In this document: in pieces, positions 42,642 to 61,324 of the stretch | How the letters are laid out: every line of letters starts with the position of its first letter | How positions within the stretch are numbered: the stretch's first letter is position 1 | Made by a program: the position numbers and the translations under genes | Assembly (NCBI RefSeq): GCF_050290165.1 | Contig: NZ_JBNKHD010000003.1 | Span: forward strand, 85,752 to 149,751 | Direction of reading: 5' to 3' | DNA from: Tenacibaculum sp. | Lineage (GTDB): Bacteria; Bacteroidota; Bacteroidia; Flavobacteriales; Flavobacteriaceae | Length of the DNA: 64,000 nt | The notes under the pieces: model-generated | What the model saw: only the letters and a program-made list of their open reading frames with translations | The model's database searches: none | What the model was told of the DNA's origin: nothing

Positions 42642-42660
42642 AAGTTCGTATATATGAAAT

Positions 42661-42691
42661 AAAAAAGCCGAGTTTAAAACTCGGCTTTTTT
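42661..42691. terminator. Bidirectional intrinsic terminator
   Basis: AAAAAAGCCGAGTTT-A-AAACTCGGCTTTTTT. Confidence 0.85.
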
Positions 42692-42702
42692 ATGTTGTTT
42701 GA

Positions 42703-44964: not shown

Positions 44965-44989
44965 TTTTTAGTATTTAATTTAAGTTTTG

Positions 44990-45034
44990 CAAATTTACTT
45001 ACACAAGAATGCTCTTATGTTATGTTTATGTTAT
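44990..45034 (-). promoter_or_regulatory. Promoter (-7 TAAATTTG) with 11-bp-period ATAACA direct repeats (Pho-box-like)
   Basis: CAAATTTA at 44990-97; TGTTAT at 45018 and 45029. Confidence 0.5.
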
Positions 45035-45038
45035 CATT

Positions 45039-46241
45039 TTAGAAATGAATATCTACTTGTAATCGATACATTAATTGGTTTGCAGCCGTTGGTATATCTA
45101 AATAACTAACATCGGTTTGAATCTTTAATTTATGTCCGACAATGTATTTTGATAACCCTAATGTATATTGATTTTCAATGTCTTTTCCTGTAATGTTTTT
45201 GTCCAATGCAATATTGGTATAACGCCCTGTTACTTCCCAGTTTTTAGCAAATAAATATCCCGATTGAAGGTTTAATCCACTTCCTACTTGTACTACATCA
45301 CCCGTTGGAGTTCCATCAGAGTTTTTTGCAATAGGGTCTTTGGCATCTCTATAAGCATATTCCCCCATAAAAGAAAAACCTTTGTATTTAAACATGGCGT
45401 CGGCAAATATAGTAGTTATATTCGTTTCATAGTACCCAATATCATTTACCATGTAGGTACCTTGGTTACTTCTGTTTTTAACAGCATTATTGTTAAAATC
45501 GTAACTAGTACCTATGGCAAGCTTAGGAGTTTGTTCTCTTTTTAAATCACCTCCTTTATAATCTCCACCTCCTTCAAAATTACCAAAGGGTAAAAATTCT
45601 AAACGAGCGGTATATTGGTGTCCGCCAAGGTTTCCTACAGTAACATTTCTTCCTTCACCTTGTGCAAAAGAGAATGCTTCACGAACAATAAACTTATCTG
45701 ATAAATTAAAATGGTGTCTTAATTGTAAGCCCATGTCTCTATCAATATTAAATCTGCTGTTTAGTAAAGATCGGTCAACAAGTTGCATGTTAGCTGAAGA
45801 TATAACGCGTTCGCGGTTACCTGGTAGTTTAGTTTGTCCAAACCACAGTTCAAAATTTTGATGAAAATTCCATTTTACAACGGCATCTAAAATATATCTT
45901 GGAGCATTTCCAGTATGTTCTGAAGCTCCACTAATATCTTTATTAGATAAGCCAAGTTCTAATTTGTATTTTAATTTAGGCGAAAGCACAAACCCGTCAA
46001 ATTTTAAACGGGCTCTTCTTACAAGCATTGATGAGGATGGATTGTATAATCCTTCTTTGTTAGAATCCCATTCAGCAGTAGCTAAAAATTGTACTCTAGC
46101 CCCCATGTTCATAGACCATGTGCTATCTTTTCCTATTAGGTTAAATAAACCTTTACCAAATTTTGGAGAGTTAGTTTGCTGTGCATTTGTATATGAAAAT
46201 ACAAACATACTTACTATGGTAAGTACTGTTTTACAGTTCAT
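45039..46241 (-). CDS. Phosphate-selective porin (OprO/OprP family)
   Basis: Signal peptide, RRARLKFDGF, FGQTKLPGNRERVISS, DRS, DRDMG and C-terminal Phe; upstream of the PiT gene. Confidence 0.8.
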   Translation of the reverse strand: MNCKTVLTIVSMFVFSYTNAQQTNSPKFGKGLFNLIGKDSTWSMNMGARVQFLATAEWDSNKEGLYNPSSSMLVRRARLKFDGFVLSPKLKYKLELGLSNKDISGASEHTGNAPRYILDAVVKWNFHQNFELWFGQTKLPGNRERVISSANMQLVDRSLLNSRFNIDRDMGLQLRHHFNLSDKFIVREAFSFAQGEGRNVTVGNLGGHQYTARLEFLPFGNFEGGGDYKGGDLKREQTPKLAIGTSYDFNNNAVKNRSNQGTYMVNDIGYYETNITTIFADAMFKYKGFSFMGEYAYRDAKDPIAKNSDGTPTGDVVQVGSGLNLQSGYLFAKNWEVTGRYTNIALDKNITGKDIENQYTLGLSKYIVGHKLKIQTDVSYLDIPTAANQLMYRLQVDIHF

Positions 46242-46287
46242 TAGAATATCGTTATTAGTTTTTGTCGCGGCAAATAACTAACACTAA

Positions 46288-46315
46288 TGTTAAGTTAGTG
46301 TTAATTGAATATTAA
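46288..46315 (-). promoter_or_regulatory. Three 11-bp-period TTAACA/TTAATA direct repeats (Pho-box-like)
   Basis: + strand TGTTAA at 46288, TGTTAA at 46299 and TATTAA at 46310, upstream of the porin start. Confidence 0.55.
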
Positions 46316-46342
46316 AAAACTGCCTTAGAAAAAGGCAGTTTT
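46314..46342 (-). terminator. Intrinsic terminator after the metallophosphoesterase gene
   Basis: AAAACTGCCTT-AGAAA-AAGGCAGTTTT with a U-tract on the minus strand. Confidence 0.7.
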
Positions 46343-46502
46343 AGGTAAGTCAAATAAATAGTCGACAAAAACTAATAAATTTATAATGACTGTACATCCT
46401 CTAGTAGAGGGAAGTCAAAATTACTGGCTTTTTCCGATACTAATATTAAGTGTAATTTAACAAACTGTTACCAAGGTAAATTTTAAGTTAACTTGGAGGG
46501 AG

Positions 46503-47390
46503 CTATATATAATCTGCTATTTTTTCTGGTCCTTCTAAAATGGTTCGCACAATTTGCATGGTTCCATTTTTATTTGTGATTAAATGCCACTTAATGAGTG
46601 TTATTTCATTGTTTTCAATTTCGAGACCAGTAATACATCTTGGATGCACGCAACTGCCATCATTAAAATGAGGCAATTCTTCGCATGAAGGAAACCTTGG
46701 ACGATGCGTATGACCAGTAACAATCATTTGACGATTGTTTTTTTGAATCCATTTTTCTAATCGGTGTTCTACTTTTATTAGTCCTTTAAAGTTTTTTGCG
46801 GGGCTCGTAGGATCTTTAATCCCGTATATTTGAAGTGGGCGCCATAAAAAGCGAACTAAAAACCGGCTGAGTTTCCAAAAAGTATAATTAAACCAATCAG
46901 CTTGGTGACCGTGGAGTAGAAAGATTGATTTTCCGTCATGTTGAACTAATCGAATAGCTTCTGAAAAGGAAGCGTTAGGTAACAATTCTTTTTCTTTTCC
47001 ATCGATAGTGTCGAGATAAGTACTTAGGTTTTTTGTTACATTTTTAGGGTTTTTATAATCCATATCATGGTTTCCCCAAATAAAATGTAGTTTGTTTTGC
47101 TGGTAAAATTCTTTAAGTAATAAGTAAATATCTTTATTAGCATTAAAAATGTTTTCAAATTTGTTTTCCCATAGTTCATCACCATCGCCTAATTCTATAT
47201 AGGTAAATTCTTTTTGAAGATATTGAGATAGGGCATAATGGTATATTTTTCTATTATGCACAAAATCATCGGCAAAACTACTATCACCTCGATGACAATC
47301 AGAAAATATAATGTATCTAGACTTTTCGTTAAAAGGTAACTTTTTCGCTTCTCTAAAAGCTTTACTGATTCTACTGTTTGAAGAAAACAT
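46503..47390 (-). CDS. Calcineurin-like metallophosphoesterase (LpxH-like subgroup)
   Basis: FSDCH, LGDGDE, WGNHD, LHGH and GHTH. ATG at 47390 is preferred over the ORF-track start at 47438. Confidence 0.85.
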   Translation of the reverse strand: MFSSNSRISKAFREAKKLPFNEKSRYIIFSDCHRGDSSFADDFVHNRKIYHYALSQYLQKEFTYIELGDGDELWENKFENIFNANKDIYLLLKEFYQQNKLHFIWGNHDMDYKNPKNVTKNLSTYLDTIDGKEKELLPNASFSEAIRLVQHDGKSIFLLHGHQADWFNYTFWKLSRFLVRFLWRPLQIYGIKDPTSPAKNFKGLIKVEHRLEKWIQKNNRQMIVTGHTHRPRFPSCEELPHFNDGSCVHPRCITGLEIENNEITLIKWHLITNKNGTMQIVRTILEGPEKIADYI

Positions 47391-47581
47391 GTATACTAAT
47401 TTTACTAGATAAAGATGCATAAAAAATAAATAAAACACTGAATTTCTATAAACTTACTGAGAATACATTTTGAAATTAAGTTTATGGGTAAGTAAGATGT
47501 TAAAATACTTAAGTGTGTTATAATGTTAATTTTTAATAACTTACGTAAAAATTTAAAAACTAACTTTAATACCCTTCAAAA

Positions 47582-49663
47582 ATGAAAAAAAAGTATTTAT
47601 TACTTTCGTTACTATTGCTGTGCCTTAGTTTTTCTAATGTTTACAGTCAAGAAAAAATGTTTTATGGTACTATTGAAACTAAAGATGCCTTAAAACTACA
47701 AAAAGTTGCTCCCTCTGATATTAAGATTCTTTCCTCCCAAAATGGATTTAGTGCTGTAAAGCTAAGCCATCATGCAGCTGAAAAATTGCATCACATGATT
47801 TTAACTCATGGTCCAGGGTTTATTTATGAACCGTCTGAAAAACAAGCTATACAAACAATTCAGAAACTACAAAGTAAGAAAGCTTATCAGCAGAGAGCAT
47901 CATATACTATTAGTGAAGATCAACTTGTAAGTCAAAGTTTAGGTTTGGTAAACAATACAAATATTGCCAATCATATTGTAGAGCTTGAAAACTATGGTAC
48001 TAGATATCATACTACCCAGAAGGCAACACAGGCAGTACAAGACTTAAAACAAAAATGGGAAACTATGGCCAGTGGTAGATCTGATGTTAGTGTTAGAATA
48101 GTTGACCATAGTAGTACCACTATGCCTTCCGTAGTTATGACAATTCAAGGAAGTGATCTTCCGAATGAATATGTAATTATAGGTGGTCATATCGATTCTG
48201 TTAGTCCAGAAAGAGAAACTAATGCTCCTGGTGCTGATGATAATGCTTCTGGTATTGCTACAATTACCGAAATGGCTAGAGTGCTTTTTCAAATGGATTT
48301 TCAACCTAAAAGAACAATAGAGTTTATGGCATTTGCTGCTGAAGAAGTTGGTTTAAGAGGTTCAAAAGAGATTGCTCAGGATTATAAAAATAGTAGTATC
48401 AATGTTTTGTCGTATGTGCAATTTGATATGACTAATTATAAAGGATCGCCAAAAGATGTTTACATTTCTGATGATAGCTATAATAGCAGTACACTTAATG
48501 CTTTTTTAGCGAGCCTTATGGATCATTATAATGCTTCGGGGAACCATCAATTTACCTACGATTATACACGATGTAATTACGGTTGTTCTGATCATTATAG
48601 TTGGGCGCAACAAGGATATGATGCTGCTTTTCCTTTTGAAGCATCATTTAACGATTCAAGTCCTTATATTCATACTGTTAATGATACTTCAGACCGATTC
48701 CCAACAGCCAATGCAACACATGCAGCAAAATTTGCAAAGCTTGGTTTAGAGTATTTAATTGAAGTAGCAAAAAGTAAAGGAAGTGTTAGTGTACCAGCTT
48801 ACTGCGATTCAAAAGGAAACAATATAAATGATGAATATATTCAAAATGTAAAACTTGGGACTATTAATAATAATTCAGGAGCTACAAATGGTTATCAAGA
48901 TTTTACGAATATTTCTACCAATTTAGAACAAGGTAGTTCCAATACAGTTACTATTATTCCTAAATGGACAGGTACAGTTTATAAAGAAGGATATGCAGTT
49001 TGGATTGATTACAATCAAGATTCTGACTTTGAAGATAGCGGAGAGCAAGTATGGGTTAAAAGTGCATCTACTGATAGCTCTGTGAATGGGACTTTTACTA
49101 TACCTAACACTGTAAAACTAGGAACTACAAGAATGAGAGTTTCTATGCGGTATAATACGATTCCTTCTTCTTGTGGTTCTTTTGATTATGGAGAGGTTGA
49201 AGATTATACTATAAATATTATTGAAGGAGATGGTGATACTAGTACAAATATTTGTGACGGAGTACCGCAATATGATTCTTCTCAAAGCTATCAGGTTGGT
49301 GATAGAGTTGTTTATTTTGATGTTTTGTATGAGAGAACATCAAGTGGATGGAACAGTATTGGAAATTGTAGTAGTGCTAAAGTCACTAAATCAGATACAA
49401 AGGAAATTTTAGTAAATGATAAAAATGTAATTGAATTTTCTCCCAACCCTGTTGAAAAGGGAGTAATCACCTTACAAGTAAATAATGAATTGTGGAAAAA
49501 CAAAGAAGTTGCTATCTATAATGCAAATGGAAGGTTGCTTCAAAAAGTAAAAATGAGTTCAAGAAGCAACAATATAGATGTTTCAAAGTTATCAGCCGGG
49601 ATTTATTTTGTGTCTCTTGACGATACGGGAAAAATGTATACTAAACAATTAGTTAAAAAGTAA
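47582..49663 (+). CDS. Secreted M28 leucyl-aminopeptidase-like metallopeptidase with GEVED, CBM5/12-like module and T9SS type A CTD
   Basis: GGHIDS, GADDNASG, AAEEVGLRGS, SDH and IHT; YGEVEDY; QYDSSQSYQVGDRVVY; FSPNPVEK...GIYFVSL...KQLVKK. Confidence 0.85.
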   Translation: MKKKYLLLSLLLLCLSFSNVYSQEKMFYGTIETKDALKLQKVAPSDIKILSSQNGFSAVKLSHHAAEKLHHMILTHGPGFIYEPSEKQAIQTIQKLQSKKAYQQRASYTISEDQLVSQSLGLVNNTNIANHIVELENYGTRYHTTQKATQAVQDLKQKWETMASGRSDVSVRIVDHSSTTMPSVVMTIQGSDLPNEYVIIGGHIDSVSPERETNAPGADDNASGIATITEMARVLFQMDFQPKRTIEFMAFAAEEVGLRGSKEIAQDYKNSSINVLSYVQFDMTNYKGSPKDVYISDDSYNSSTLNAFLASLMDHYNASGNHQFTYDYTRCNYGCSDHYSWAQQGYDAAFPFEASFNDSSPYIHTVNDTSDRFPTANATHAAKFAKLGLEYLIEVAKSKGSVSVPAYCDSKGNNINDEYIQNVKLGTINNNSGATNGYQDFTNISTNLEQGSSNTVTIIPKWTGTVYKEGYAVWIDYNQDSDFEDSGEQVWVKSASTDSSVNGTFTIPNTVKLGTTRMRVSMRYNTIPSSCGSFDYGEVEDYTINIIEGDGDTSTNICDGVPQYDSSQSYQVGDRVVYFDVLYERTSSGWNSIGNCSSAKVTKSDTKEILVNDKNVIEFSPNPVEKGVITLQVNNELWKNKEVAIYNANGRLLQKVKMSSRSNNIDVSKLSAGIYFVSLDDTGKMYTKQLVKK

Positions 49664-49680
49664 TTGTTTACAGAGTATAA

Positions 49681-49712
49681 AAAAAACCCAAGTTTTAAAA
49701 CTTGGGTTTTTT
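49681..49712. terminator. Bidirectional terminator (perfect 32-bp palindrome)
   Basis: AAAAAACCCAAGTTTT/AAAACTTGGGTTTTTT. Confidence 0.85.
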
Positions 49713-49750
49713 GGGTTATTTATATCTAAATATTGGTTTGTTAAATCACC

Positions 49751-51715
49751 TTATTGTATAGTAAAGTTGTCTAAATAAATATCGAAAGGAGCACTCTTTC
49801 CAACTTTTAAAGCAAAGAAACTTTTGCTTAAATCAGATGTGTTTAAATCAGTAATACCTGTTAAATCTAAGGTGATCTTAACCCATTGTCCAGCAGTGTT
49901 GATAGAACCAGTATAGCTATTGCTACCACTAGCAGAAATAGTAGTGTCTCCAGTAATATCACCTAAATTAAATGGGTAGTATGATGTACCATCTGATTTA
50001 TATAAGTTGATAGAGATACTTTTTCCTGTTGAAGTTCCTTTAACATAAAAAGTAATAGAATTGTAAGTACTTGGTAATCCATTTTGAGCTAAAGAAGTAA
50101 AAACATAATCATTACCACCTGTTGAACTCATATTGATGCTTAAAGCAGTACTACTGTCAACTCCATTTCCTGCACTTTCAGTAGCGTAACTTTTAAGACC
50201 AAAACTGTTTAAACCATTTGTAAATGCTGTGAAATCTTCAAAATCACCTCCAGCAAAAGCTAAAGAACCAGTAGGTACAGGTGTACCACCTCCACCACAA
50301 GTTGTGTAATCTTCAGTAAAGTTTACATCAGCTTCATTTCTTAAATAGATTTGAACTCCATCAAAATTAGACATTACTCCAGTAAGAGTACCTTTTTTAT
50401 TACTTACAGGGTTATTAGCAAAGTTAGCTTGACTACTAACATATGTTGTTAAAGCATCTCCATCACATTCTGAAATTAACTCATTATTCCCACTATAATT
50501 TTTAGCGTTGTCTTTGAATTGTACTCCTTCAATTTGTACTAATTTACCTTGATAGTCTCCAGTTAAAGCTTGTGCTATGGTAATTACTTCAGGTGTTGGT
50601 AAAGTACCTGCAGTTTTACTAAGAATGCTAGATGGAGAAACATTTAATTGTAATAAACCTTTATATTCACTTAATTTAGCTCCACCAACTGCAATTTCTA
50701 CTTCGTCTCCTAAGTTTAAATCGTATGCACCACTAAAACGTAAAGCAATACCAGCTGATGCGTCTTGTGCAAAAGCATTTTGGTTTGATGTATTTCCAGC
50801 AGCTAAATCTGAAGTAATTACAAGTTTTACTTTTAAATTTTCAGTAATGGTAACTTCACTATTAGTATATAAAGACTTAACGTAAGCTAATGTAGCTTCT
50901 GTAGGGTTATTGTTACAACCATATTCTTGAGTAAAGTTAACATCGTTAGTGTCTCTAAGAACTAATTGATAGCTACCTGAAAATTCATCTAAAATAGCAG
51001 TAATACTTCCTTTTTTATCAGGAATTGGATATTCTTTGAAGCTAACGAACTTACTTGTAGAAATATCAATTTTTTCAAAAGTTTCACAAGAAGTCATAGT
51101 TCTTGTAATGTAACTATCGTCTTCAGGGTAAGCATATTGCAATCCTTTTGTTGCTGATTGTAAACCTTCAATTTTCACTAACGTATTGATGTGGTTATCA
51201 GTTAAGTCACCAATTGTTAAAGTAGTTGGTACGATATCTACGATTTCAGAAGATCTATCTATTTTGCTTACATAATCCTCAGCTCCAATTCTGTCAGTAC
51301 GATTACCAGTACCTTTGATACCAATTTCAAAAGCTGAGTAGGGTTTGCTTAAGGCTAAACCTTTTAGTTTAACATATACTTTTCTTCCTACATTATATCT
51401 AGCTCCTAAGTTAGCATCATCAATTTTAATTTCAACTCCTACTGTAGGATTTTCAGGTTTGTCTTGTATAACTAATGTTTTGTAGAAGTTACCTTCTCTG
51501 TCATCAGAAATAACATAACCAGAAATAGTAATATCGTCATTAAACTCTACTACATCACCATTGTACAAAGCAATGATTTCACTTAATGATTTTAAGTTAG
51601 TATATTCTTTGTCTGATCCAATTGTTGGTAATTCAAAATCGTTATTATCAACACATGAGGCTGAAATTGCAATAAAAAGAATTGCAAAAATCTTGTATAA
51701 ATTTATTTTTTTCAT
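49751..51715 (-). CDS. DUF5689 (OB-fold) surface lipoprotein with C-terminal CBM-like beta-sandwich
   Basis: Lipobox ISASC, GYVISDDREGNFYKTLVIQD (DUF5689), an internal repeat, and C-terminal WVKITLDL...IYLDNF. Confidence 0.75.
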   Translation of the reverse strand: MKKINLYKIFAILFIAISASCVDNNDFELPTIGSDKEYTNLKSLSEIIALYNGDVVEFNDDITISGYVISDDREGNFYKTLVIQDKPENPTVGVEIKIDDANLGARYNVGRKVYVKLKGLALSKPYSAFEIGIKGTGNRTDRIGAEDYVSKIDRSSEIVDIVPTTLTIGDLTDNHINTLVKIEGLQSATKGLQYAYPEDDSYITRTMTSCETFEKIDISTSKFVSFKEYPIPDKKGSITAILDEFSGSYQLVLRDTNDVNFTQEYGCNNNPTEATLAYVKSLYTNSEVTITENLKVKLVITSDLAAGNTSNQNAFAQDASAGIALRFSGAYDLNLGDEVEIAVGGAKLSEYKGLLQLNVSPSSILSKTAGTLPTPEVITIAQALTGDYQGKLVQIEGVQFKDNAKNYSGNNELISECDGDALTTYVSSQANFANNPVSNKKGTLTGVMSNFDGVQIYLRNEADVNFTEDYTTCGGGGTPVPTGSLAFAGGDFEDFTAFTNGLNSFGLKSYATESAGNGVDSSTALSINMSSTGGNDYVFTSLAQNGLPSTYNSITFYVKGTSTGKSISINLYKSDGTSYYPFNLGDITGDTTISASGSNSYTGSINTAGQWVKITLDLTGITDLNTSDLSKSFFALKVGKSAPFDIYLDNFTIQ

Positions 51716-51727
51716 CTTGAGTGTTTT

Positions 51728-54487
51728 TTAGAATCTATAATTTACGTTTAAGAAATAAGTGGTACCTCTACCGTACCAGTATTTGTTTCCGAAAGTAGGA
51801 GTTCCGTTTGCGTTATCGTCACGTAACTCACGGTAGTTAGCTCTTCTACCTTGTTCGTATCCTCCTGTTTTATATTCTTCATTGAATATATTATTAATAC
51901 TAGCAAATAAACCGATATATTTGCCATCACCTACTTTCCAAGATTTTCCTCCAATAGCATTTACTACGATATAATCGTTGAATTGTTCTTGCTGTAATAG
52001 TTTTCTAGCTAATATAGGGTCATAATCTGCAAAAGGAGCACCGTCTACATCACTTATAAAGTTACTAGTTCTTCTAATAGGGGAAACATCTACAAAAGAT
52101 TCATCTAAATAATTAATAGTAGCTCCAAACCACCAGTAATCAGGATCTCTGTATTCAAATCCAAAAGAGTATGCTTTTTGTGGTCCTGCAGCAATTCTAT
52201 AATCTTTAAGAGAAGCAGCTCCCATATCTCTTTTACCGTTTATAAATCCAGGAGTGGATGCATTTTCAGTAGTAATAACAAGATTAGGATTGTTATTGTA
52301 TGTATACTGACCAATATTTGCAGCCCCTTTTAATTTAATAGTAGAAGTAACTTGTGCTTCGATACCCAATTCAACACCAAAGTGTCTTTTATCAATGCCT
52401 GTTAGGATTTCCTGAATAAAAGCAGAAGTATCTCCTCCAATACCATCAGCAAAGAAGAAAGAAATCTCAGTAGCATCTTTAATATCTGTAAAATAACCAG
52501 TCACTTTTGAAGTGATTAATGGGCTTCTGAAAATGTAACTAATATCTCCAGATAAAATTTTCTCACTGTTTAATTCTGCTACATCAGCAACAGTAACATT
52601 ATTTGCTCTTGAATTAGCAAAAGAATTACGTAAAGAAGGTGCTTTTGTAATATAACCACCATTTATGTCTAGTAAATGACGACCAGAAATTTTATAAGTT
52701 AAACCTCCTTTAGCTCCGTAGTTAAAGAAGTCTAATTTATCTGACTTTCCATAAGAATTAGTAGGGAAGTATCCGTTTTGGAATAAGCCTTCTCTCTGAT
52801 GAGTAGTATTATTTGCTTGTCCAGCTACATAAAAATCAACTTTGTTGTACTTGAATTGTAATTGTGCAAAACCACCATATACTTCAGATTCAAAATTATA
52901 GTTGTATTTGAAACGATCACCCAAACCAACAGTTCTACTAGGTGTTAATAGATTGCTTTGTTGTTGGTCAAAAGTACTTCCAAAAGTATTAACATCTAAA
53001 TAACCTGTAGCTCCAAGCATATCTATTGGAGTAGCAAAGTTTTCAGATCTTAATTTTCTGTACTCTGCGTTGGCAGTTAATGTAATATTATCATTTAATT
53101 CAGAAGATAGAATCATGTTTGCAGTTAATTGCTTGTCATCGTTTCTGTCTTCATATAAGATAGCACGAGCATTTTCTGGACTACCTTCATTTCCTATGTA
53201 TAACTCATCCCAATCAATTTGTCCGTCATTTTGGAAACTAGTTAATGCTTTATATGCATTTTCGTAGTCAGGTCCATTAGGATCTGATAAATACCAACTA
53301 GGTAGTTTTCTATAATATGTAGGATCAGGATTGTTTGTTCCGTTATAATCTAAACGACTATTTCCAATCTCTCCGAATTGATAACCAATATTGGTGTTTA
53401 ACATGGTGTTATCAGAAAGGTTCCAATAGTGATTTAACATTATGATTGGCTCGTATAATCTCTTAACTCTTGAGTTTCTCATTTTTCCATTTTGATTCCC
53501 CCAGTAAGAGTTATAACGAATACCTCTGATATCAAAAACTTCTTGAGTATTAGGTGACGATTTACCTCTTTCATTTTCAGCAGCAATCACAGTTAAGTTT
53601 AAGCTGTGAACATCGTTAATCTGCTTTTCAAGTGATAAAAAGATAGAGTTAGCATCGTAAAAAGTTCCATCAACATAACCTTCGTTACCTGCTCGTCTAC
53701 TTCCAGAAACTGCTATTGCCCAACCATTAGCTAATAAACCAGAAGTGTAAGTGGCCATTAAACGATGTTTATAACTTCTATTAGAAGAAGCGTAAGAAAT
53801 ACGTGTTCCTTCACTATATTCAGAAGCTCTAGTGTTAATATTTGTAGAACCTAATACACCACCAAAAGCATAATTAGAAGGAGTTAACCCGTTACTAAAT
53901 TCTTGATTACGTAATACGTCGTTCAATCCTCCCCAGTTACTCCATTGAGGTCTTCCGTTGTACAACTTGTTCATTTCAATACCGTTAATCAAAACTTTAC
54001 CGTTCTCAGAATCTAAACCGCGAACTCTGTAGAATGAACCACTCCATTCAAAAGCAGCAGTACGTAAGTATATATCTCTGGTAGCTTGTAATAAACCAGA
54101 AATATTATCTGCAGCACTTGTGTCATCGTTTAATTCATCATCCGTAATGGTGATAGTACTTAAATCTTGGTCTTCAGATATATCTTCATACATAAAGATA
54201 GTTCCTAAGTCTACAGTTTTACCAGATAATTCTACTGGAAAATTTTGGGTTTCATACCCGTTTAATGATACCGTTACAATTTGTCTTCCGTTTGGTAAAC
54301 CATTTAATGTAAAAGTACCGCTAGCATCAGTAATGCTTGAAATGTTGGCGTCTTTTACACTTACAGAAACACCTTGCATAGGATTTTCTGAATCGCTGTT
54401 TATTACGATCCCCTTTACAATGTTCTGCGCATTAAGGCTAAATAAGCCTGAAAGCAACAATAACATTGTTATCGTAAAATTTCTCAT
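51728..54487 (-). CDS. TonB-dependent receptor with N-terminal carboxypeptidase-regulatory-like extension
   Basis: Signal peptide, KGIVINSDSENPMQGVSV (NTE), plug YRVRGLDSE...INGIEMN and terminal YFLNVNYRF. Confidence 0.85.
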   Translation of the reverse strand: MRNFTITMLLLLSGLFSLNAQNIVKGIVINSDSENPMQGVSVSVKDANISSITDASGTFTLNGLPNGRQIVTVSLNGYETQNFPVELSGKTVDLGTIFMYEDISEDQDLSTITITDDELNDDTSAADNISGLLQATRDIYLRTAAFEWSGSFYRVRGLDSENGKVLINGIEMNKLYNGRPQWSNWGGLNDVLRNQEFSNGLTPSNYAFGGVLGSTNINTRASEYSEGTRISYASSNRSYKHRLMATYTSGLLANGWAIAVSGSRRAGNEGYVDGTFYDANSIFLSLEKQINDVHSLNLTVIAAENERGKSSPNTQEVFDIRGIRYNSYWGNQNGKMRNSRVKRLYEPIIMLNHYWNLSDNTMLNTNIGYQFGEIGNSRLDYNGTNNPDPTYYRKLPSWYLSDPNGPDYENAYKALTSFQNDGQIDWDELYIGNEGSPENARAILYEDRNDDKQLTANMILSSELNDNITLTANAEYRKLRSENFATPIDMLGATGYLDVNTFGSTFDQQQSNLLTPSRTVGLGDRFKYNYNFESEVYGGFAQLQFKYNKVDFYVAGQANNTTHQREGLFQNGYFPTNSYGKSDKLDFFNYGAKGGLTYKISGRHLLDINGGYITKAPSLRNSFANSRANNVTVADVAELNSEKILSGDISYIFRSPLITSKVTGYFTDIKDATEISFFFADGIGGDTSAFIQEILTGIDKRHFGVELGIEAQVTSTIKLKGAANIGQYTYNNNPNLVITTENASTPGFINGKRDMGAASLKDYRIAAGPQKAYSFGFEYRDPDYWWFGATINYLDESFVDVSPIRRTSNFISDVDGAPFADYDPILARKLLQQEQFNDYIVVNAIGGKSWKVGDGKYIGLFASINNIFNEEYKTGGYEQGRRANYRELRDDNANGTPTFGNKYWYGRGTTYFLNVNYRF

Positions 54488-54554
54488 AAATAATTGTTTA
54501 TAAAATATTTAAATAAGTTAGTTCCCAGTGCCGAAAATTACAGCAAAAGGGAGG

Positions 54555-54600
54555 CAAAATTAATAAAATTATCATTATGTTAATATTAAGTTAATGTTAT
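54555..54600 (-). promoter_or_regulatory. Promoter of TBDT-DUF5689 operon (-7 TAATTTTG) with 11-bp-spaced TTAACA-like repeats
   Basis: CAAAATTA at 54555-62; TGTTAA 54578/AGTTAA 54589 and TATTAA 54584/TGTTAT 54595. Confidence 0.45.
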
Positions 54601-54647
54601 GAATGAGGGTTTTGTGTAAATTGTAAGTTTTGGCTTGAAAATTGTTT

Positions 54648-54655
54648 TACTTTTG
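54648..54655 (+). promoter_or_regulatory. -7 element (TACTTTTG) for the EEP nuclease
   Basis: Consensus, 18 nt upstream of ATG. Confidence 0.55.
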
Positions 54656-54673
54656 CCGCGTAAAATTTATTAA

Positions 54674-55723
54674 ATGAGAAATATAGCTACACTCTTAGTT
54701 TTAACTCTTGTTGTTTTTTCTTCATATGCGCAGCAAGGACAAAAAAAATATAAAATTAGAACCGTAGGTTTTTATAATTTAGAAAACCTTTTTGATACCA
54801 AAAATGACCCTGAAAAAAACGATGAGGCGAGTCCGATTATGGAAATGAAGGGAAATAAAGAAGAGGTTTATTGGGATAAAATAGATAAGCTTGGTGAAGT
54901 TATTTCTCAATTGGGGGAAGAAAAAGCACATACAAGTCCTGCTATTTTAGGGGTAGCAGAAGTAGAGAATAAAAAGGTGCTTGAAGATTTAGTGAAATCT
55001 GAAAGGTTAAAAAAGAAGCGTTATGATATTATTCATTTTGATTCTCCTGATAAAAGAGGGATTGATGTAGGTTTCTTATATCAACCACGTTATTTTAAAC
55101 CAATTCATTTTGAAGCATTCAATCCGAATATTTACGATCAGAATCATAAAGTCTATACACGTGACATCTTGTTAGTTTCAGGATACCTTGATGATGAACT
55201 TATACATATTATTGTAAATCACTGGCCGTCTCGTAGAGGAGGAGAAGCAAAAAGTAGACCTTTACGTGAAAAAGCAGCATATAAAGTAAAACAGCTTATA
55301 GAAAAAATTAAAGAGAGTGACCCAAATCCAAAAGTTTTAATAATGGGAGACTTTAATGATGATCCCATAAACTCGAGTTTTAAAACTGTTTTGCTAACCA
55401 AGAGCAAAAAGAATAATGTAAAAGAAGGTGATGTTTACAATCCATATGAAGATATGTTCCGTCGTGGATTTAATACACTTGGTTATAGAGATAATATTAA
55501 TTTATTTGACCAAATAATGTTTACTTCTCCATTATTGGATAAAGGAGAGAAAGATTTTTCAACTTATAAAATGTTCAAGTCAGCAATCTTTAATAAGCGT
55601 TTCTTGACACAAAAGAGTGGTCGTTATAAAGGATATCCTTTTAGAAGTTTTTCTTATGGAAAATATACGGGAGGTTATAGTGATCATTACCCGGTATATA
55701 TGTACTTGATTAAAGAGGAATAA
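54674..55723 (+). CDS. Secreted endonuclease/exonuclease/phosphatase (EEP) family protein
   Basis: Signal peptide, FYNLENLFD, GVAEVEN, NHWPSR, MGDFNDDP, LFDQI and YSDHYPV. Confidence 0.9.
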   Translation: MRNIATLLVLTLVVFSSYAQQGQKKYKIRTVGFYNLENLFDTKNDPEKNDEASPIMEMKGNKEEVYWDKIDKLGEVISQLGEEKAHTSPAILGVAEVENKKVLEDLVKSERLKKKRYDIIHFDSPDKRGIDVGFLYQPRYFKPIHFEAFNPNIYDQNHKVYTRDILLVSGYLDDELIHIIVNHWPSRRGGEAKSRPLREKAAYKVKQLIEKIKESDPNPKVLIMGDFNDDPINSSFKTVLLTKSKKNNVKEGDVYNPYEDMFRRGFNTLGYRDNINLFDQIMFTSPLLDKGEKDFSTYKMFKSAIFNKRFLTQKSGRYKGYPFRSFSYGKYTGGYSDHYPVYMYLIKEE

Positions 55724-55761
55724 AATTAAAAGGACTTGCAATTGCAAGTCCTTTTAATTTT
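55722..55761. terminator. Bidirectional terminator (perfect 40-bp palindrome overlapping both stop codons)
   Basis: AAAATTAAAAGGACTTGCAA/TTGCAAGTCCTTTTAATTTT. Confidence 0.85.
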
Positions 55762-56104
55762 TACAAATATCGTTTAAATAGTTGTTCATTCTTAATTGAA
55801 ATAAGGTACCTCTCAACAAATCATCTATTTGTCCCAATTCGACTAATGATACTGCCAAACTAATTTTGTCAGATGGGGTTTGTAGCAAAATAGATTTACA
55901 GTGCTTTCCCTTGATACACGTATCACAGTTTTTTTGTTGTCTTGAATCCATTACTTTTTCTAAGAACTCTTCAATTTCTCGTTCTTTTAAATGAAATCCA
56001 GTGTCTCTAAATATGAGTTGAATTAGGTTAGCCTTGTTTTCTTTCCATTGAAAAGAAATACCTATTTTATTGTCGTATATCTTTGTTATACTTTCCATAA
56101 TCAT
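55754..56104 (-). CDS. Small hypothetical protein with CxxC-x5-C motif and C-terminal Cys
   Basis: 116 aa with C60, C63, C69 and C114; own promoter and Fur-box-like site. Confidence 0.7.
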   Translation of the reverse strand: MIMESITKIYDNKIGISFQWKENKANLIQLIFRDTGFHLKEREIEEFLEKVMDSRQQKNCDTCIKGKHCKSILLQTPSDKISLAVSLVELGQIDDLLRGTLFQLRMNNYLNDICKN

Positions 56105-56118
56105 AGTTAATTATGAAA

Positions 56119-56126
56119 CAAATATA
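56119..56126 (-). promoter_or_regulatory. -7 promoter element (TATATTTG)
   Basis: CAAATATA on + strand, 14 nt upstream of ATG. Confidence 0.65.
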
Positions 56127-56130
56127 AAAG

Positions 56131-56155
56131 TTTATTTGGAATTATTCTAAATAAA
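56131..56155. promoter_or_regulatory. Putative Fur box (12-1-12 palindrome, one mismatch)
   Basis: TTTATTTGGAAT-T-ATTCTAAATAAA. The core ATTTGGAATTATTCTAAAT is 18/19 to the recalled Riemerella Fur box. Confidence 0.7.
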
Positions 56156-56162
56156 AAAAATA

Positions 56163-57848
56163 CTATTTTAAATCTTTTAACATTAGCTGAATAGAAGTGT
56201 ACCCATTCCAAGTATTTTCATCTAAGGTATAGGCAATGTCAAAATCGTTTTGTGTTGAAGTTATTTTGTCTCCCAAACCAAACCCAATTGCATTGTATGT
56301 TTTTTGGTCAGTGCCGTAAATGATATTCAATTTTAAATGACTACTGTCAGTGCCAACTTGTTTTCCGTAACCATTATCTCTCACAGCAGTTGTGGTAAAA
56401 ACAGGTTTCATGTTTTGCGGACCAAACGGGGCCATTTGTTGAATAATGCGGAAAAACTTTGGAGTGATTTCTGATAAGTCAATCTCAGCATCAATAGTGA
56501 TTTCTGGAGTTAACAAGTCTTTATCAATGGTTGCTTTAACTACTTCTTCAAACTTATTTTTAAAGTTTTGATATTGCTCAGGTAACAAGGTTAACCCCGC
56601 TGCATATTTATGTCCACCAAATTGTTCGATAAACTCAGAGCATTCTTCCAAAGCATTGTACACATCAAATCCTTTTACGGAACGAGCTGAGGCAGCTAAT
56701 TTTTCACCACTCTTAGTAAAAACCAACGTAGGTCTGTAGTAAGTTTCTGTTAAACGAGAGGCTACAATACCAATGACTCCTTTGTGCCAATTTTCGTCAA
56801 AAACAACTGTGGTGTAATTTTCTTGTTCGTTATTTTTTTCAATTTGTAATAAAGCTTCTTGGGTAATTGCTCTATCCAGTTCTTTTCTGTCTGAATTAAA
56901 TTTTTCAATAGCTGAAGCAAACTCAACGGCTGAATCAAAATCCATTTCGGTTAACAATTCAACTGCATAGTTTCCATGTTTCATACGACCAGCAGCATTT
57001 ATCCGCGGAGCGATGATAAAAACTACATCGGTAATGGTGAGTTCCTTTTTTTGTAACTGATGAATAATAGCCTTAATACCATTTCTGGGTTGCGAATTGA
57101 TGACTTGTAGTCCGTGATACGCTAATACTCTATTTTCACCAGTCATTGGAACAATGTCTGCGGCGATTGCTGTAGCAACTAAATCTAAATATGGAATTAA
57201 GTCTTCAATCGTTTGATTTCTTTTTGAAGCTAACGCCTGAATCAATTTAAAGCCAACACCACAACCACATAGCTCATCATAAGGATAGTTGCAGTCTATT
57301 TGTTTAGGGTTTAAAACAGCAATAGCTTTTGGAACCTCACTTCCGGGTTTATGGTGATCACAAATAATAAAATCAATTCCTTTTTTAGTAGCATAATCAA
57401 CTTTATCAATAGCTTTAATACCGCAGTCTAAAGCAATGATAAGCGAAAAACCATTGTCCTCAGCAAAATCAATTCCTTGAAAAGAAACTCCATAGCCTTC
57501 TTCGTATCGGTCAGGAATATAGGTTGCAATATTAGGGTGAATTGTTTTTAGGTAAGAAGATAGTAAAGAAACAGCTGTAGTTCCGTCAACATCATAATCA
57601 CCAAAAACTAAGATATTTTCGTTGTTAGTAATAGCGGTTTCTATGCGTTGAACAGCGAGCTCCATATCCTTCATTAAAAAAGGATTGTGTAAATCGCTTA
57701 GTGATGGACGAAAAAATAGTTTGGCTTCATCAAAGGTTTCAATACCGCGTTGCACTAAAATTTTAGCCAAGGTAGTATCCACAGCTAATTCTTTAGCTAA
57801 TTGTTTTACTTTAATGGTGTCTGGTTGCGGTTTTAGTGTCCAACGCAT
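56163..57848 (-). CDS. recJ: Single-stranded DNA-specific exonuclease RecJ
   Basis: GDYDVDG, DCG, CDHH (DHH), PRINAAGR, GGHKYAAG. Confidence 0.97.
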   Translation of the reverse strand: MRWTLKPQPDTIKVKQLAKELAVDTTLAKILVQRGIETFDEAKLFFRPSLSDLHNPFLMKDMELAVQRIETAITNNENILVFGDYDVDGTTAVSLLSSYLKTIHPNIATYIPDRYEEGYGVSFQGIDFAEDNGFSLIIALDCGIKAIDKVDYATKKGIDFIICDHHKPGSEVPKAIAVLNPKQIDCNYPYDELCGCGVGFKLIQALASKRNQTIEDLIPYLDLVATAIAADIVPMTGENRVLAYHGLQVINSQPRNGIKAIIHQLQKKELTITDVVFIIAPRINAAGRMKHGNYAVELLTEMDFDSAVEFASAIEKFNSDRKELDRAITQEALLQIEKNNEQENYTTVVFDENWHKGVIGIVASRLTETYYRPTLVFTKSGEKLAASARSVKGFDVYNALEECSEFIEQFGGHKYAAGLTLLPEQYQNFKNKFEEVVKATIDKDLLTPEITIDAEIDLSEITPKFFRIIQQMAPFGPQNMKPVFTTTAVRDNGYGKQVGTDSSHLKLNIIYGTDQKTYNAIGFGLGDKITSTQNDFDIAYTLDENTWNGYTSIQLMLKDLK

Positions 57849-57869
57849 AGCAATTTAATCGAAAATAAA

Positions 57870-58295
57870 TTAGTTGTTATGTAAATGAATAGCGGTAGTT
57901 ACATCAGCAAATTTTCTAAACATTTCCATAACACCACAGTATTTTTCAATCGATAAATCTACTGCTTTGTTAATTTTTTTCTCGTCTAAATCGCTTCCGT
58001 AAAAATGATAATCAACCAAAACTTTATGGTAATATTTTGGGTGCTCTTCGGTTAATTCACCAGTAACAACAATTTTAAAATCATCAATTTTTACACGCAT
58101 TTTTTCTAACATAGGAACGATATCTAAACCAGAACAACCTGCTAATGAAGAAAGCATCATGGCTTTAGGTCGTAACCCAGTATTATTTCCTCCATGCTCT
58201 TCAGAAGTGTCAATTACTATTGAATGTCCACTTGGGTTATCACTTTCAAATTGCATATTTTCTTTCCAAACGGTTGTAACTGTGTTTGTTGCCAT
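57870..58295 (-). CDS. OsmC/YhfA family protein
   Basis: GLRPKAMMLSSLAGCSG and SIEKYCGV (two conserved Cys). Confidence 0.85.
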   Translation of the reverse strand: MATNTVTTVWKENMQFESDNPSGHSIVIDTSEEHGGNNTGLRPKAMMLSSLAGCSGLDIVPMLEKMRVKIDDFKIVVTGELTEEHPKYYHKVLVDYHFYGSDLDEKKINKAVDLSIEKYCGVMEMFRKFADVTTAIHLHNN

Positions 58296-58414
58296 ATCTT
58301 GATAATTTTTTGTTTATTGCATAAGTAAGTCAATGTGTATTTTGACTTAAGTATTTAAATAGTAACACAAACTTACAGTAAAAAGTTAGTATTAAAAACT
58401 TAAAAAATAAAACT

Positions 58415-59005
58415 ATGCCTTTAGTAACTCCTTTAGATTCGAATCATGATGCAGAAACAAAACAGTTGTCTGATTTTTATAATGAAACCTTAGGTTTTTG
58501 CCCAAATTCGGTGTTAACAATGCAACGCCGACCAGAAATTTCTAAAGCATTTATCAATTTAAATAAAGCGGTAATGGCTAACCATGGTCGTGTGACTTCT
58601 GCTTTAAAACGTATGATTGCTTGGGTAAGCAGCAATGCTACAGGTTGTCGTTACTGTCAAGCACATGCAATTCGTGCTGCTGAACGTTACGGTGCAGAAC
58701 AAGAACAATTAGATAATATTTGGGAATATAAAACACACTCAGCATTTTCTGATGCTGAACGTGCAGCATTAGATTTTTCATTGGCGGCTTCGATGGTTCC
58801 AAATATGGTAGATGAAAAAATAAAAGAGGAGTTGTATAAATATTGGGATGAAGGAGAGATAGTAGAAATGTTAGGAGTGATCTCTCTTTTTGGATATTTA
58901 AATCGTTGGAATGATTCTATGGGAACAAGTATTGAAGATGGTGCCGTTGAAAGTGGAAAACAATATTTAGGAAAACATGGTTGGAACAAAGGAAAGCATG
59001 TATAA
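58415..59005 (+). CDS. Carboxymuconolactone decarboxylase / AhpD-like peroxidase
   Basis: CRYCQAH (CxxC-H), ERAALDF and LFGYLNRWND. Confidence 0.85.
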   Translation: MPLVTPLDSNHDAETKQLSDFYNETLGFCPNSVLTMQRRPEISKAFINLNKAVMANHGRVTSALKRMIAWVSSNATGCRYCQAHAIRAAERYGAEQEQLDNIWEYKTHSAFSDAERAALDFSLAASMVPNMVDEKIKEELYKYWDEGEIVEMLGVISLFGYLNRWNDSMGTSIEDGAVESGKQYLGKHGWNKGKHV

Positions 59006-59010
59006 AAATT

Positions 59011-59034
59011 AAAAGCTCGCATTTGCGAGCTTTT
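59011..59034. terminator. Bidirectional intrinsic terminator
   Basis: AAAAGCTCGCA-TT-TGCGAGCTTTT between the CMD gene and mscL. Confidence 0.8.
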
Positions 59035-59055
59035 TTTATTAAGTATCTAACTGAA

Positions 59056-59463
59056 TTATTTTTTTAATAAATCTCTAATTTCAGTTAATAGTTCTTCTTG
59101 ACTAGGTCCTTTAGGGGCTTCTGGAGCAGCTTCTTCTTTTTTCTTCATAGCATTTACAGCTTTTACGACCATAAACATTACAAAAGCTACAATGATAAAA
59201 TCAATAACATGAGTTAAAAATTCGCCATACATTATAGCAACTTCTCCTGTTACTTTTCCTGCTTCATCTGCAACACCTTCTTTAATTATATATTTTACAT
59301 CTTTAAAGTTGGCTTTGAAAATAAGTCCAATTAAAGGAGAAACAATTCCTCCAGTAAAAGATGTTACTACTTGTTTAAAAGCAGCACCCATTACAAAACC
59401 TACTGCAATGTCTACTAAATTGCCTTTCATGGCAAAGTCTTTAAACTCTTTAAGCATTCCCAT
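59056..59463 (-). CDS. mscL: Large-conductance mechanosensitive channel
   Basis: KEFKDFAMKGNLVDIAVGFVMGAAF and LLTEIRDLLK. Confidence 0.97.
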   Translation of the reverse strand: MGMLKEFKDFAMKGNLVDIAVGFVMGAAFKQVVTSFTGGIVSPLIGLIFKANFKDVKYIIKEGVADEAGKVTGEVAIMYGEFLTHVIDFIIVAFVMFMVVKAVNAMKKKEEAAPEAPKGPSQEELLTEIRDLLKK

Positions 59464-59508
59464 ATTTTTGATTTTTAATAGTTAACTGAATTGAAAAGTA
59501 TAAAAAAA

Positions 59509-60612
59509 TTAGTGTTTTACCAATCTTTTTATGCGTTGAGATAAAGAGGTAAGTATTTCATATGGAATGGTTTCACTCTTATGAGCCATATATTCCACAT
59601 GTTGTTGATGGTTAAAGATAATTACTTCATCTCCTTCGTTACAATCAATTTTTGTAACATCAACCATAATCATATCCATACACACATTTCCAATAATAGG
59701 AGCTGGTTGATTATTGATAAAAACAAAACCATTTTTATTTCCTAGTTTTCTTGAAATACCATCTGCATGTCCAATAGGAATCGTAGCACTTCGAGTAGGT
59801 TGATTTGCAACAAAAGCTCTATTGTAACCAACAGTTTCACCAGGTTGAATTAGGTGAATTTGAGAAATAATAGACTTTAAAGTATGGGTATTTTTTAATT
59901 GAGCAGTTTCTTGATCATCATTTCCAAAACCGTACAATCCTATGCCTAAGCGAACCATATCAAATTGAGCCTGTGGATAATTGATAATTCCAGAAGTGTT
60001 TAAGATATGAAGTGTAGGTTCGTAATCTAGGTGTGAATAAATTTGTTTTACAATATAGGCGAAGTTGTTAATCTGACCTATAGTAAAATCTTGCTCATAA
60101 GGATCTTCACTAGCAGCTAAATGTGAAAAAATTGATTCAACTTTTACATTGTTTGATTTTTTTAACCCTGAAATTAATGCAGGTACATCTGTGTGCCAAA
60201 ACCCTAGTCTGTTTAATCCGGTATTGAATTTTATATGAATAGGATAATTCATCAAAGGAGTCTCATCTGCAAGTTGCATAAATGCATCAAAAATTTTGAA
60301 ACTATATAAACTAGGTTCAAGACGATATTTTACAATCTCTTTTAAGTTTTGAATTTGAGGTTGTAACACTAAAATAGGAGTTGTTATTCCTGCTTCACGT
60401 AACGCAATACCTTCATTAGAGTAGGCAACAGCAAAGTAATCAACCTGATCTTGTACAATTTTAGCAATCTCTACTGATTCACTTCCGTAGCCATATGCCT
60501 TAACTACTGCCAAAATTTTGGTTTGAGGCTGTAATTTTTGTTTAAAATAAGCTAGGTTGTGCAACACAGCTTGCGAATCGATTTCTAAAACAGTAACGTG
60601 ATTGTTATTCAT
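59509..60612 (-). CDS. alr: Alanine racemase
   Basis: AVVKAYGYG (PLP-Lys), [21 protein letters not shown] and VCMDM. Confidence 0.95.
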
Positions 60613-61222
60613 TATCGGTTTCTTCTTCTTTATTATGAGCTTCTTGCTCTTTCATGGCTTTATAATAGGCAGCTCTGCTTAAAGGTTCATATTCTTGGGT
60701 TTCACCCAATAATACTAAATCGTCACTTTGTGCTTTCCTATAACTATAATGTGCTAGGTTGCCAGTACGGGTGCAAACTGCATGTACTTTGGTAACATAC
60801 TCAGCAGTTGCCATTAAAGCAGGCATAGGTCCAAAAGGATTTCCTTTAAAGTCCATATCTAAACCAGCAACTATAACACGAATGCCTCTGTTGGCTAAAT
60901 CGTTACAAACAGCTACAATTTCATCATCAAAAAACTGAGCTTCGTCTATTCCTACTACGTCAACATCATTAGCAAGTAGCCTTATGTTAGAAGATGCTGG
61001 TACTGGCGTAGAGCGAATTCTATTTTCGTTATGCGATACCACTTCTTCATCGTGATAACGAGTATCAACAGCAGGTTTAAATATTTCAACACGTTGCTTA
61101 GCAAACTGAGCACGTTTAAGTCTTCTAATTAATTCTTCGGTTTTACCCGAAAACATTGAGCCACAAATTACCTCAATCCAACCAAATTGTTCTGTGTGAT
61201 TTACCGTATTTTCAAGAAACAT
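60605..61222 (-). CDS. tdk: Thymidine kinase
   Basis: [14 protein letters not shown] and AGLDMDF; overlaps the alr start by 8 nt. Confidence 0.95.
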
Positions 61223-61324
61223 TTTGTAATTTTAAGCTCTAAATTATTGATTTTTGTATTACTTTCGAACGAGGAACAAATTTATTAAAATTTAATAGCA
61301 AAAAATAAAATACAAGGATAACTT

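Follow-up and report, generated by a model that had tools for sequence, protein, structure and literature searches.

A probable ddbBCD-type outer-membrane DNA uptake module adjoining phosphate-uptake genes in a Tenacibaculum genome

Which substrate is imported by a TonB-dependent transporter (TBDT) that is encoded with a DUF5689 lipoprotein and a divergent endonuclease/exonuclease/phosphatase (EEP)-fold phosphodiesterase, and to what use is that substrate put? The question is raised by three genes in a 64,000-nucleotide stretch of a Tenacibaculum sp. genome (assembly GCF_050290165.1, contig NZ_JBNKHD010000003.1, positions 85,752 to 149,751 of the forward strand), which is the whole of the DNA analyzed here and is called the window; coordinates are those of the window unless another contig or genome is named. 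A preliminary description, made from the DNA letters and their open reading frames, had taken the three genes for a SusD-less uptake locus dedicated to extracellular DNA or nucleotides. We consider it probable that the trio is the Tenacibaculum member of the outer-membrane DNA uptake module represented by ddbBCD of Bacteroides thetaiotaomicron and by the RA0C_RS04915/04920 pair of Riemerella anatipestifer. The reading as DNA uptake is right but not new, because the trio corresponds to a module that has already been published, and the only unusual feature of the locus is its direct adjacency to the genome’s phosphate-uptake genes.

By the open reading frame list of the window, the lipoprotein gene (49751-51715, - strand, 654 aa) and the TBDT gene (51728-54487, - strand, 919 aa) form a two-gene operon with 12 nt from the TBDT stop to the lipoprotein start, and the EEP gene (54674-55723, + strand, 349 aa) runs divergently from the TBDT across a 186-bp spacer (54488-54673). 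Within this putative divergent promoter region a -7-type box (TAnnTTTG) can be read in each direction, at 54555-54562 for the TBDT (TAATTTTG, - strand) and at 54648-54655 for the EEP gene (TACTTTTG). A predicted bidirectional hairpin terminator (49681-49712; 14-pair stem, then a T run) would end both the TBDT-lipoprotein operon and the convergent M28 peptidase gene, and a second one (55722-55761; 18-pair stem) lies 3' of the EEP gene. Reading frames, intergenic gap and terminators thus agree with the earlier proposal that TBDT and lipoprotein are co-transcribed and diverge from an EEP protein with a signal peptide. The accompanying claim that SusD and glycoside hydrolases are missing is borne out by Pfam searches of the neighboring genes (42703-62257), which returned no SusD-like protein and no glycoside hydrolase; nor did they return a hybrid two-component or extracytoplasmic function (ECF) regulator at the locus. 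An Rfam search over 42000-58500 gave no riboswitch or small RNA, its lone match lying far under threshold.

Depletion of DNA by B. thetaiotaomicron requires ddbABCDEF, three products of which (DdbA, DdbB and DdbF) have DNase activity in vitro (Sharan et al., PNAS 2025, PMC12478041; bioRxiv 10.1101/2025.03.18.642099); this is the locus that the preliminary description had mentioned as a DNA-utilization locus of gut Bacteroides. The TBDT of that locus is DdbC, which is capped in the published model by the DUF5689 protein DdbD (p202-HIN-like, modelled via 4JBM), and the nuclease DdbB carries a Sec (SPI) signal peptide; homologues of DdbC and DdbD make up the Riemerella RA0C_RS04915/04920 pair, beside which a ddbB-like gene also lies (PMC12478041). 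Markerless deletion of either RA0C_RS04915 or RA0C_RS04920 abolishes natural transformation in R. anatipestifer (Huang et al. 2021, PMC8459023). The former is a barrel with a carboxypeptidase-regulatory-like domain and the latter a DUF5689+DUF5017 lipoprotein, and adjacent homologues of the pair occur throughout Flavobacteriaceae, for example at 35% identity in Polaribacter (PMC8459023).

When likened to these systems through family profiles, Weeksellaceae relatives and the published descriptions, the Tenacibaculum trio has every sequence-level mark of the ddbBCD type: a TBDT of ~900-960 aa with a CarboxypepD_reg-like N-terminal domain, a DUF5689 lipoprotein encoded directly downstream, an adjacent nuclease with a Sec signal, and a HIN-like fold in the lipoprotein model. 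We infer that DdbB belongs to PF19580, the family to which the Tenacibaculum EEP is assigned; PF18942, NF052645 and PF19580 all match in the B. thetaiotaomicron control genome. The TBDT (DdbC/RA0C_RS04915 type) carries a CarboxypepD_reg-like domain (E=5.8e-15) and a Plug domain (26.2 bits, cut-off 23.9) by Pfam, and its translation begins with a Sec signal (...LNA/Q) and ends in ...YRF, with a C-terminal Phe. It aligns over its full length with TBDTs from Weeksellaceae loci, including that of the uncultured Riemerella sp. metagenome-assembled genome (MAG) L121, at 34-37% identity (E ~1e-169 to 0), in line with the value of 35% given for Polaribacter in PMC8459023. Its family is large (807 clusters at 50% identity, E<=1e-30), and ten distant cluster representatives were Robiginitalea and metagenome proteins, none of them from Riemerella or Bacteroides. 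When the three protein sequences were searched against PDB chains, the sole match was to the N-terminal domain of the SusC homologue 9hfj.

Gene order and families are identical between the Tenacibaculum and R. anatipestifer modules, and with ddbABCDEF the locus shares a TBDT, a DUF5689 partner and a Sec nuclease in a polysaccharide utilization locus (PUL)-like layout without SusD. The likeness to SusCD PULs lies in a CarboxypepD_reg-like TonB barrel co-transcribed with a surface lipoprotein and in polymer-degrading enzymes alongside; the SusD-fold (tetratricopeptide repeat) partner, the glycoside hydrolases and the hybrid two-component or ECF regulator of such loci have no counterpart here. 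There are also differences from the published modules. The EEP gene is divergent, whereas the ddb nuclease lies within the operon; the lipoprotein has two DUF5689 domains and an additional C-terminal beta-sandwich compared with ddb, its C-terminal domain having no known family where Riemerella has DUF5689+DUF5017; and the setting is marine and beside the PHO4 and porin genes for phosphate uptake, whereas the Riemerella locus lies near comEC and recA. Family content, folds and the tested homologous modules together support the earlier inference of a PUL-like, SusD-less system for DNA uptake.

The three genes might of course be mere neighbors, with TBDT and lipoprotein importing some other ligand and the EEP being an unrelated housekeeping enzyme, and the EEP gene is indeed a separate, divergent transcription unit. 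We therefore surveyed gene order among related genomes, a sample that covers Tenacibaculum plus Polaribacter. A full-length TBDT orthologue was present in 37 of 41 genomes, the EEP gene diverged from the TBDT-DUF5689 pair in 20/20 related loci fetched, and gene order in T. mesophilum (CP050861) was identical over 22 kb. Three complete genomes of 2.1-2.3 Mb (G027, G030 and G037) have no TBDT, no DUF5689 protein and no intact EEP gene, G037 retaining a 69-aa EEP relic aligned to the final 63 positions of PF19580; because all three genes are absent together, the trio has been lost as a unit. The same divergent arrangement occurs in a Saprospiraceae genome, in Weeksellaceae records (Epilithonimonas, Chryseobacterium and Kaistella) and in the uncultured Riemerella sp. 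MAG, where the EEP gene (42% identity) diverges from the TBDT gene (37%, residues 19-919). Within the order, every genome with a lipoprotein above the NF052645 cut-off carries the trio, with identities of 34-36% for the TBDT and 37-39% for the EEP. Conservation of the divergent arrangement from Saprospiraceae to Flavobacteriaceae and Weeksellaceae, together with co-loss, indicates that the arrangement is not due to chance; the unrelated-neighbors explanation is strongly disfavored, and we regard it as very improbable. A variant was seen in a Flavobacteriaceae MAG (L005:1622-12700), with two tandem TBDT and DUF5689-lamin-tail domain (LTD) pairs (~900 aa + 900 aa each) and one divergent EEP gene upstream. 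Across the phylum, 154 of 301 genomes, representing 85 of 143 genera, encode DUF5689.

The predicted surface lipoprotein (DdbD/RA0C_RS04920 type) has a lipobox (ISAS-C21) and matches PF18942 (DUF5689, E=6.7e-95) in two stretches, and its gene is the sole DUF5689 gene in the genome. Against NF052645 (the M949_1556 family, M949 being the Riemerella CH3 locus-tag prefix) it scores 163.6 bits (E=6.9e-48) over model positions 9-323 only, short of the cut-off of 475 bits over 457 positions; by sequence it is homologous to that family in its DUF5689 part and belongs to a separate subfamily with a different C-terminus. An AlphaFold2 model built on 61 homologues (mean predicted local distance difference test score (pLDDT) 86.6) shows two all-beta modules (~aa 36-262 and 270-472) that are joined by a disordered Gly-rich linker to a beta-sandwich at the C-terminus (~aa 506-654). 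The first DUF5689 domain (aa 40-259; 50939-51598, - strand) is the best Pfam stretch and the second (~aa 270-472; 50300-50908, - strand) is the other PF18942 match (G000:C3:136075-136650), both with pLDDT >90; the beta-sandwich (49754-50200, - strand) is defined from the model and has no Pfam family. Foldseek searches against the PDB matched the model to p204 HINab bound to double-stranded DNA (5z7d, E=3.1e-9), to p202 (4JBM, 6e-5) and to the HIN domains of MNDA, AIM2 and IFI16, as well as to the tandem oligonucleotide/oligosaccharide-binding (OB)-fold proteins Teb1 AB, RADX, CST and POT1. The model of each DUF5689 domain matches a HIN-like pair of OB folds, so the lipoprotein is predicted to contain four. 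At the level of the modelled fold the OB-fold claim of the preliminary description is thus upheld, while its emphasis on single-stranded nucleic acids was too narrow, since HIN-type OB pairs also bind double-stranded DNA.

Side by side with these conserved modules, the C-terminal domain of the lipoprotein varies. The T. mesophilum orthologue shares 81% identity with this lipoprotein over aa 1-477, but the remainder is unrelated and ends in a lamin-tail domain (PF00932), which is the C-terminus of most Tenacibaculum orthologues and not of this protein. The domain present here is 58% identical to an open reading frame (L157:12198-12698) beside a DUF5689 gene in a Weeksellaceae MAG and 41% identical to its counterpart in Amniculibacterium (L115), and the relative G033 has the DUF5689+DUF5017 form. 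From these alignments DdbD-type lipoproteins appear to exchange C-terminal modules.

The EEP (DdbB-like predicted nuclease) matches PF19580 (Exo_endo_phos_3) at E=7.4e-106 and is encoded by the single PF19580 gene of the genome. Its translation has a Sec signal (...SYA/Q), no lipobox and no type IX secretion system (T9SS) C-terminal domain; because the Sec signal is the only sorting signal, the protein is probably periplasmic, by the same logic that Sharan et al. applied to DdbB, and the earlier description of it as secreted is probably wrong. The AlphaFold2 model (pLDDT 82.8) was matched by Foldseek to TDP2 (7e-14), CNOT6L, nocturnin and DNase I (8e-12), the hallmark residues N35, E37, H183, D226, N228, D337 and H338 were invariant in 31 homologues, the mature protein has an isoelectric point (pI) of 9.0, and identity across genera is 72-93%. 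A match to the ExeM/NucH model NF033681 (30.5 bits, E=1.7e-7) covers the EEP part only and does not reach the cut-off of 300 bits; ExeM/NucH enzymes combine an LTD/OB module and the EEP domain in one secreted polypeptide, whereas at the Tenacibaculum locus OB module and EEP are separate proteins.

That the structural neighbors of the EEP include the RNA deadenylase CNOT6L and the NADP(H) phosphatase nocturnin besides DNases bears on a further alternative, namely that the module imports another phosphodiester substrate (RNA, oligonucleotides, nucleotides or a phosphodiester-linked polymer) and that the EEP has broad phosphodiesterase or phosphatase activity. RNA and oligosaccharides, too, are ligands of OB folds, a very weak match (E=0.0046) links the C-terminal domain of the lipoprotein to the glycan-binding domain PF18329, and in phosphate-depleted Flavobacterium johnsoniae several orphan TBDTs are induced whose organophosphate substrates are unassigned (PMC8115612). 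The mature lipoprotein is moreover acidic overall (pI 4.4), so that any binding of DNA would need a local basic patch or divalent cations; conserved basic residues lie mostly in domain 1 (K79, R111, K112, K116, R142, R154, K181, R205 and R254). This acidity, and the lack at the locus of DdbE and of the two lipoprotein nucleases that act outside the cell, DdbA and DdbF, count against assigning it to DNA uptake. On the other side, both experimentally studied homologous modules act on DNA, the best matches of the DUF5689 model are DNA-bound HIN domains, and neither sugar-active nor lipid-active enzymes were found by Pfam at the locus or around it, and we consider a substrate other than DNA improbable.

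If DNA is the substrate, a route can be proposed from these parts. The lipoprotein, anchored at Cys21, would hold its four OB folds over the barrel in the position of SusD and capture extracellular DNA, as suggested by its fold and by the published DdbC-DdbD model. TonB energy would drive DNA or its fragments through the barrel into the periplasm, as the genetics of Riemerella and Bacteroides suggest, and the basic EEP would cut it there, in keeping with the DNase activity of DdbB in vitro and the intact EEP catalytic residues. Genomic context suggests that the first extracellular cuts may be made by a T9SS-secreted endonuclease I encoded on another contig (G000:C2:19077-21647, - strand; 856 aa, with Endonuclease_1, two fn3, LTD, GEVED and Por_Secre_tail domains). 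It is the only other secreted nuclease found in the genome and probably works with the uptake module from outside the cell. DNA brought in by this importer could also be used for ComEC-dependent natural transformation.

To what use the DNA is put was considered from the neighborhood of the operon. Downstream of it in the window lie, all on the - strand, genes for a calcineurin-like metallophosphoesterase (46503-47438; cytoplasmic, with no signal peptide), an OprO/OprP-type phosphate-selective porin (45039-46241) and a PHO4-family phosphate transporter (42703-44964), as assigned by Pfam. Neither PstS (above cut-off) nor PhoU was detected in this 99.6%-complete genome, and porin and PHO4 are therefore its only recognizable phosphate-uptake genes. 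Both are preceded by an 11-bp-period direct repeat, (A/T)TAACAT-N4-(A/T)TAACAT, just upstream of a TAnnTTTG -7 box (porin, ATTAACACTAACTTAACATTAG at 46284-46305; PHO4, GATAACATAAACATAACATAAG at 45014-45035). These repeats are conserved in 6-8 species whose flanking sequences have diverged, and we regard them as a candidate phosphate-responsive operator. A similar 11-bp-period direct repeat (TTAACTTAATATTAAC, extended CATAACATTAACTTAATATTAACATAAT; 54579-54594, - strand) lies just upstream of the TBDT -7 box and is a candidate operator. The TTAATTTTG box itself is kept upstream of the TBDT in most relatives. Because the operon adjoins porin, PHO4 and phosphoesterase genes and a similar TAAC repeat with an 11-bp period is found in the TBDT promoter, phosphorus supply is in our judgment the most likely use in this lineage, a view that we hold with about even confidence.

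The phosphate-depletion response of F. johnsoniae offers a partial parallel: it comprises TBDT-lipoprotein pairs, an OprP porin and the secreted Endonuclease_1-fn3-LTD proteins EndA1 and EndA2 (Lidbury et al. 2020, PMC8115612). The Tenacibaculum T9SS nuclease has the same architecture as EndA1/2, and an OprP-like porin lies beside the DNA-uptake operon. The parallel ends there, in that no DUF5689 or PF19580 locus is among the induced genes listed in PMC8115612 and in that F. johnsoniae has PhoBR and PstS, whereas the Tenacibaculum genome is without PstS and PhoU. One F. johnsoniae gene, the phosphate-induced orphan TBDT Fjoh_3841 (Pfam PF13620 only), was considered as a DdbC homologue and set aside, as its mass of 120 kDa and its neighbors do not fit.

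Several observations speak against a phosphorus role. Metallophosphoesterase, porin and PHO4 genes follow the operon in 9 of 23 related loci, a Tenacibaculum subset, and the adjacency was absent from the Polaribacter-like, Flavobacterium-like and Weeksellaceae loci, no other family examined showing it. Terminators separate the TBDT operon from the phosphate genes, the TBDT-promoter repeat occurs in this form only in the window and in locus L041, and a genome-wide scan with a matrix made from the PHO4 and porin boxes revealed no wider phosphate regulon, its sites outside the cluster lying at a dodecin-like small gene, an aquaporin and glutamine synthetase III. In B. thetaiotaomicron, too, DNA is a poor sole source of carbon, nitrogen or phosphorus (Sharan et al., PMC12478041).

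The simpler pattern TTAAC-N6-TTAAC was tried and rejected as a marker of a regulon. It has 37 sites in the genome, 32 of them intergenic against ~11% non-coding DNA; its downstream genes include dnaE, sucA, rpoD, dapF, a TBDT, a second metallophosphoesterase and endonuclease I, the last being the T9SS nuclease gene described above, and since they are mostly housekeeping genes the pattern does not define a regulon. A sigma-70 scan (50 sites against 63 expected) was uninformative in AT-rich Bacteroidota DNA. In Polaribacter-like loci (L042-L049 and L058), an inverted repeat, TTTTAACA-N8-TGTTAAAA, stands directly upstream of the TTAATTTTG -7 box of the TBDT; its half-site is that of the direct repeats and its geometry is different. 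An invariant block (TTAGTTTTTGTCGACTATTT, 46263-46282 region) upstream of the terminator hairpin before the porin promoter was kept in 6/6 species aligned. Between the lipoprotein and metallophosphoesterase genes, on the opposite strand, lies a gene for a LapA-like M28 aminopeptidase with GEVED and T9SS sorting domains (47582-49663, + strand); this insertion is found in the window, in L041 and L046 and in T. mesophilum, and not in T. finnmarkense. On the other flank, a gene for a 116-aa four-Cys protein and recJ adjoin the EEP gene in many relatives (55754-57848 in the window), and a thymidine kinase gene (60605-61222) with conserved synteny lies 5 kb off.

Natural transformation was overlooked among the roles in the preliminary description, which had DNA uptake right, and it is the role for which experiments in the closest relatives at the order level speak. 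It could be the primary role here as in R. anatipestifer, the phosphate genes being incidental: lipoprotein and barrel would import long double-stranded DNA, and a ComEA-like protein, ComEC, ComF and DprA would pass a single strand to the cytoplasm for recombination. The order-level relatives that carry the trio include Weeksellaceae and the Riemerella MAG, both RA0C_RS04915 and RA0C_RS04920 are essential for transformation (PMC8459023), the genome encodes ComEC, DprA and a 310-aa tandem-HHH_3 protein like RA0C_RS02645 (ComEA-like), and recJ lies two genes from the EEP in the window and in several relatives. ComEC and DprA are nevertheless near-universal, their profiles matching in 10-11 of the 14 control genomes, among them that of Bacteroides, for which no competence is known; the competence genes are thus too widespread to discriminate, and transformation stays a live rival or an additional role. 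Against it as the primary role, no report of competence in Tenacibaculum was found in the literature searched, a strongly conserved periplasmic nuclease (72-93% identity, as given above) suits degradation better than the keeping of long DNA, and the phosphate-gene synteny of the lineage points away from it. We hold a primary role in transformation to be possible and somewhat unlikely; uptake for nutrition and for transformation are not mutually exclusive.

Phosphorus supply, the use that we favor, can be extended to a more specific and speculative proposal, which as a whole we think rather doubtful. In a Tenacibaculum lineage without PstS and PhoU, a ddbBCD-type importer may have joined the phosphate-acquisition unit and come to share the 11-bp-period (A/T)TAACA(T) operator with PHO4 and porin, so that DNA import would serve as a high-affinity phosphorus route, and exchangeable lipoprotein C-terminal domains (LTD, DUF5017 or beta-sandwich) would tune capture.

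Dissolved DNA is a major marine phosphorus pool. The locus mainly confirms the spread of the module, with DUF5689 in about half of the sampled Bacteroidota genomes, and adds to it a physical, possibly regulatory, coupling between a DNA importer and phosphate uptake in a genome that lacks both Pst and PhoU. If the proposed sharing is true, the repeat would be the first described Bacteroidota “Pho box”, and the locus also offers a place in which a phosphate-responsive operator of Bacteroidota may be defined. Tenacibaculum is thus a convenient place to tell phosphorus nutrition, transformation, or both apart as roles of this module.

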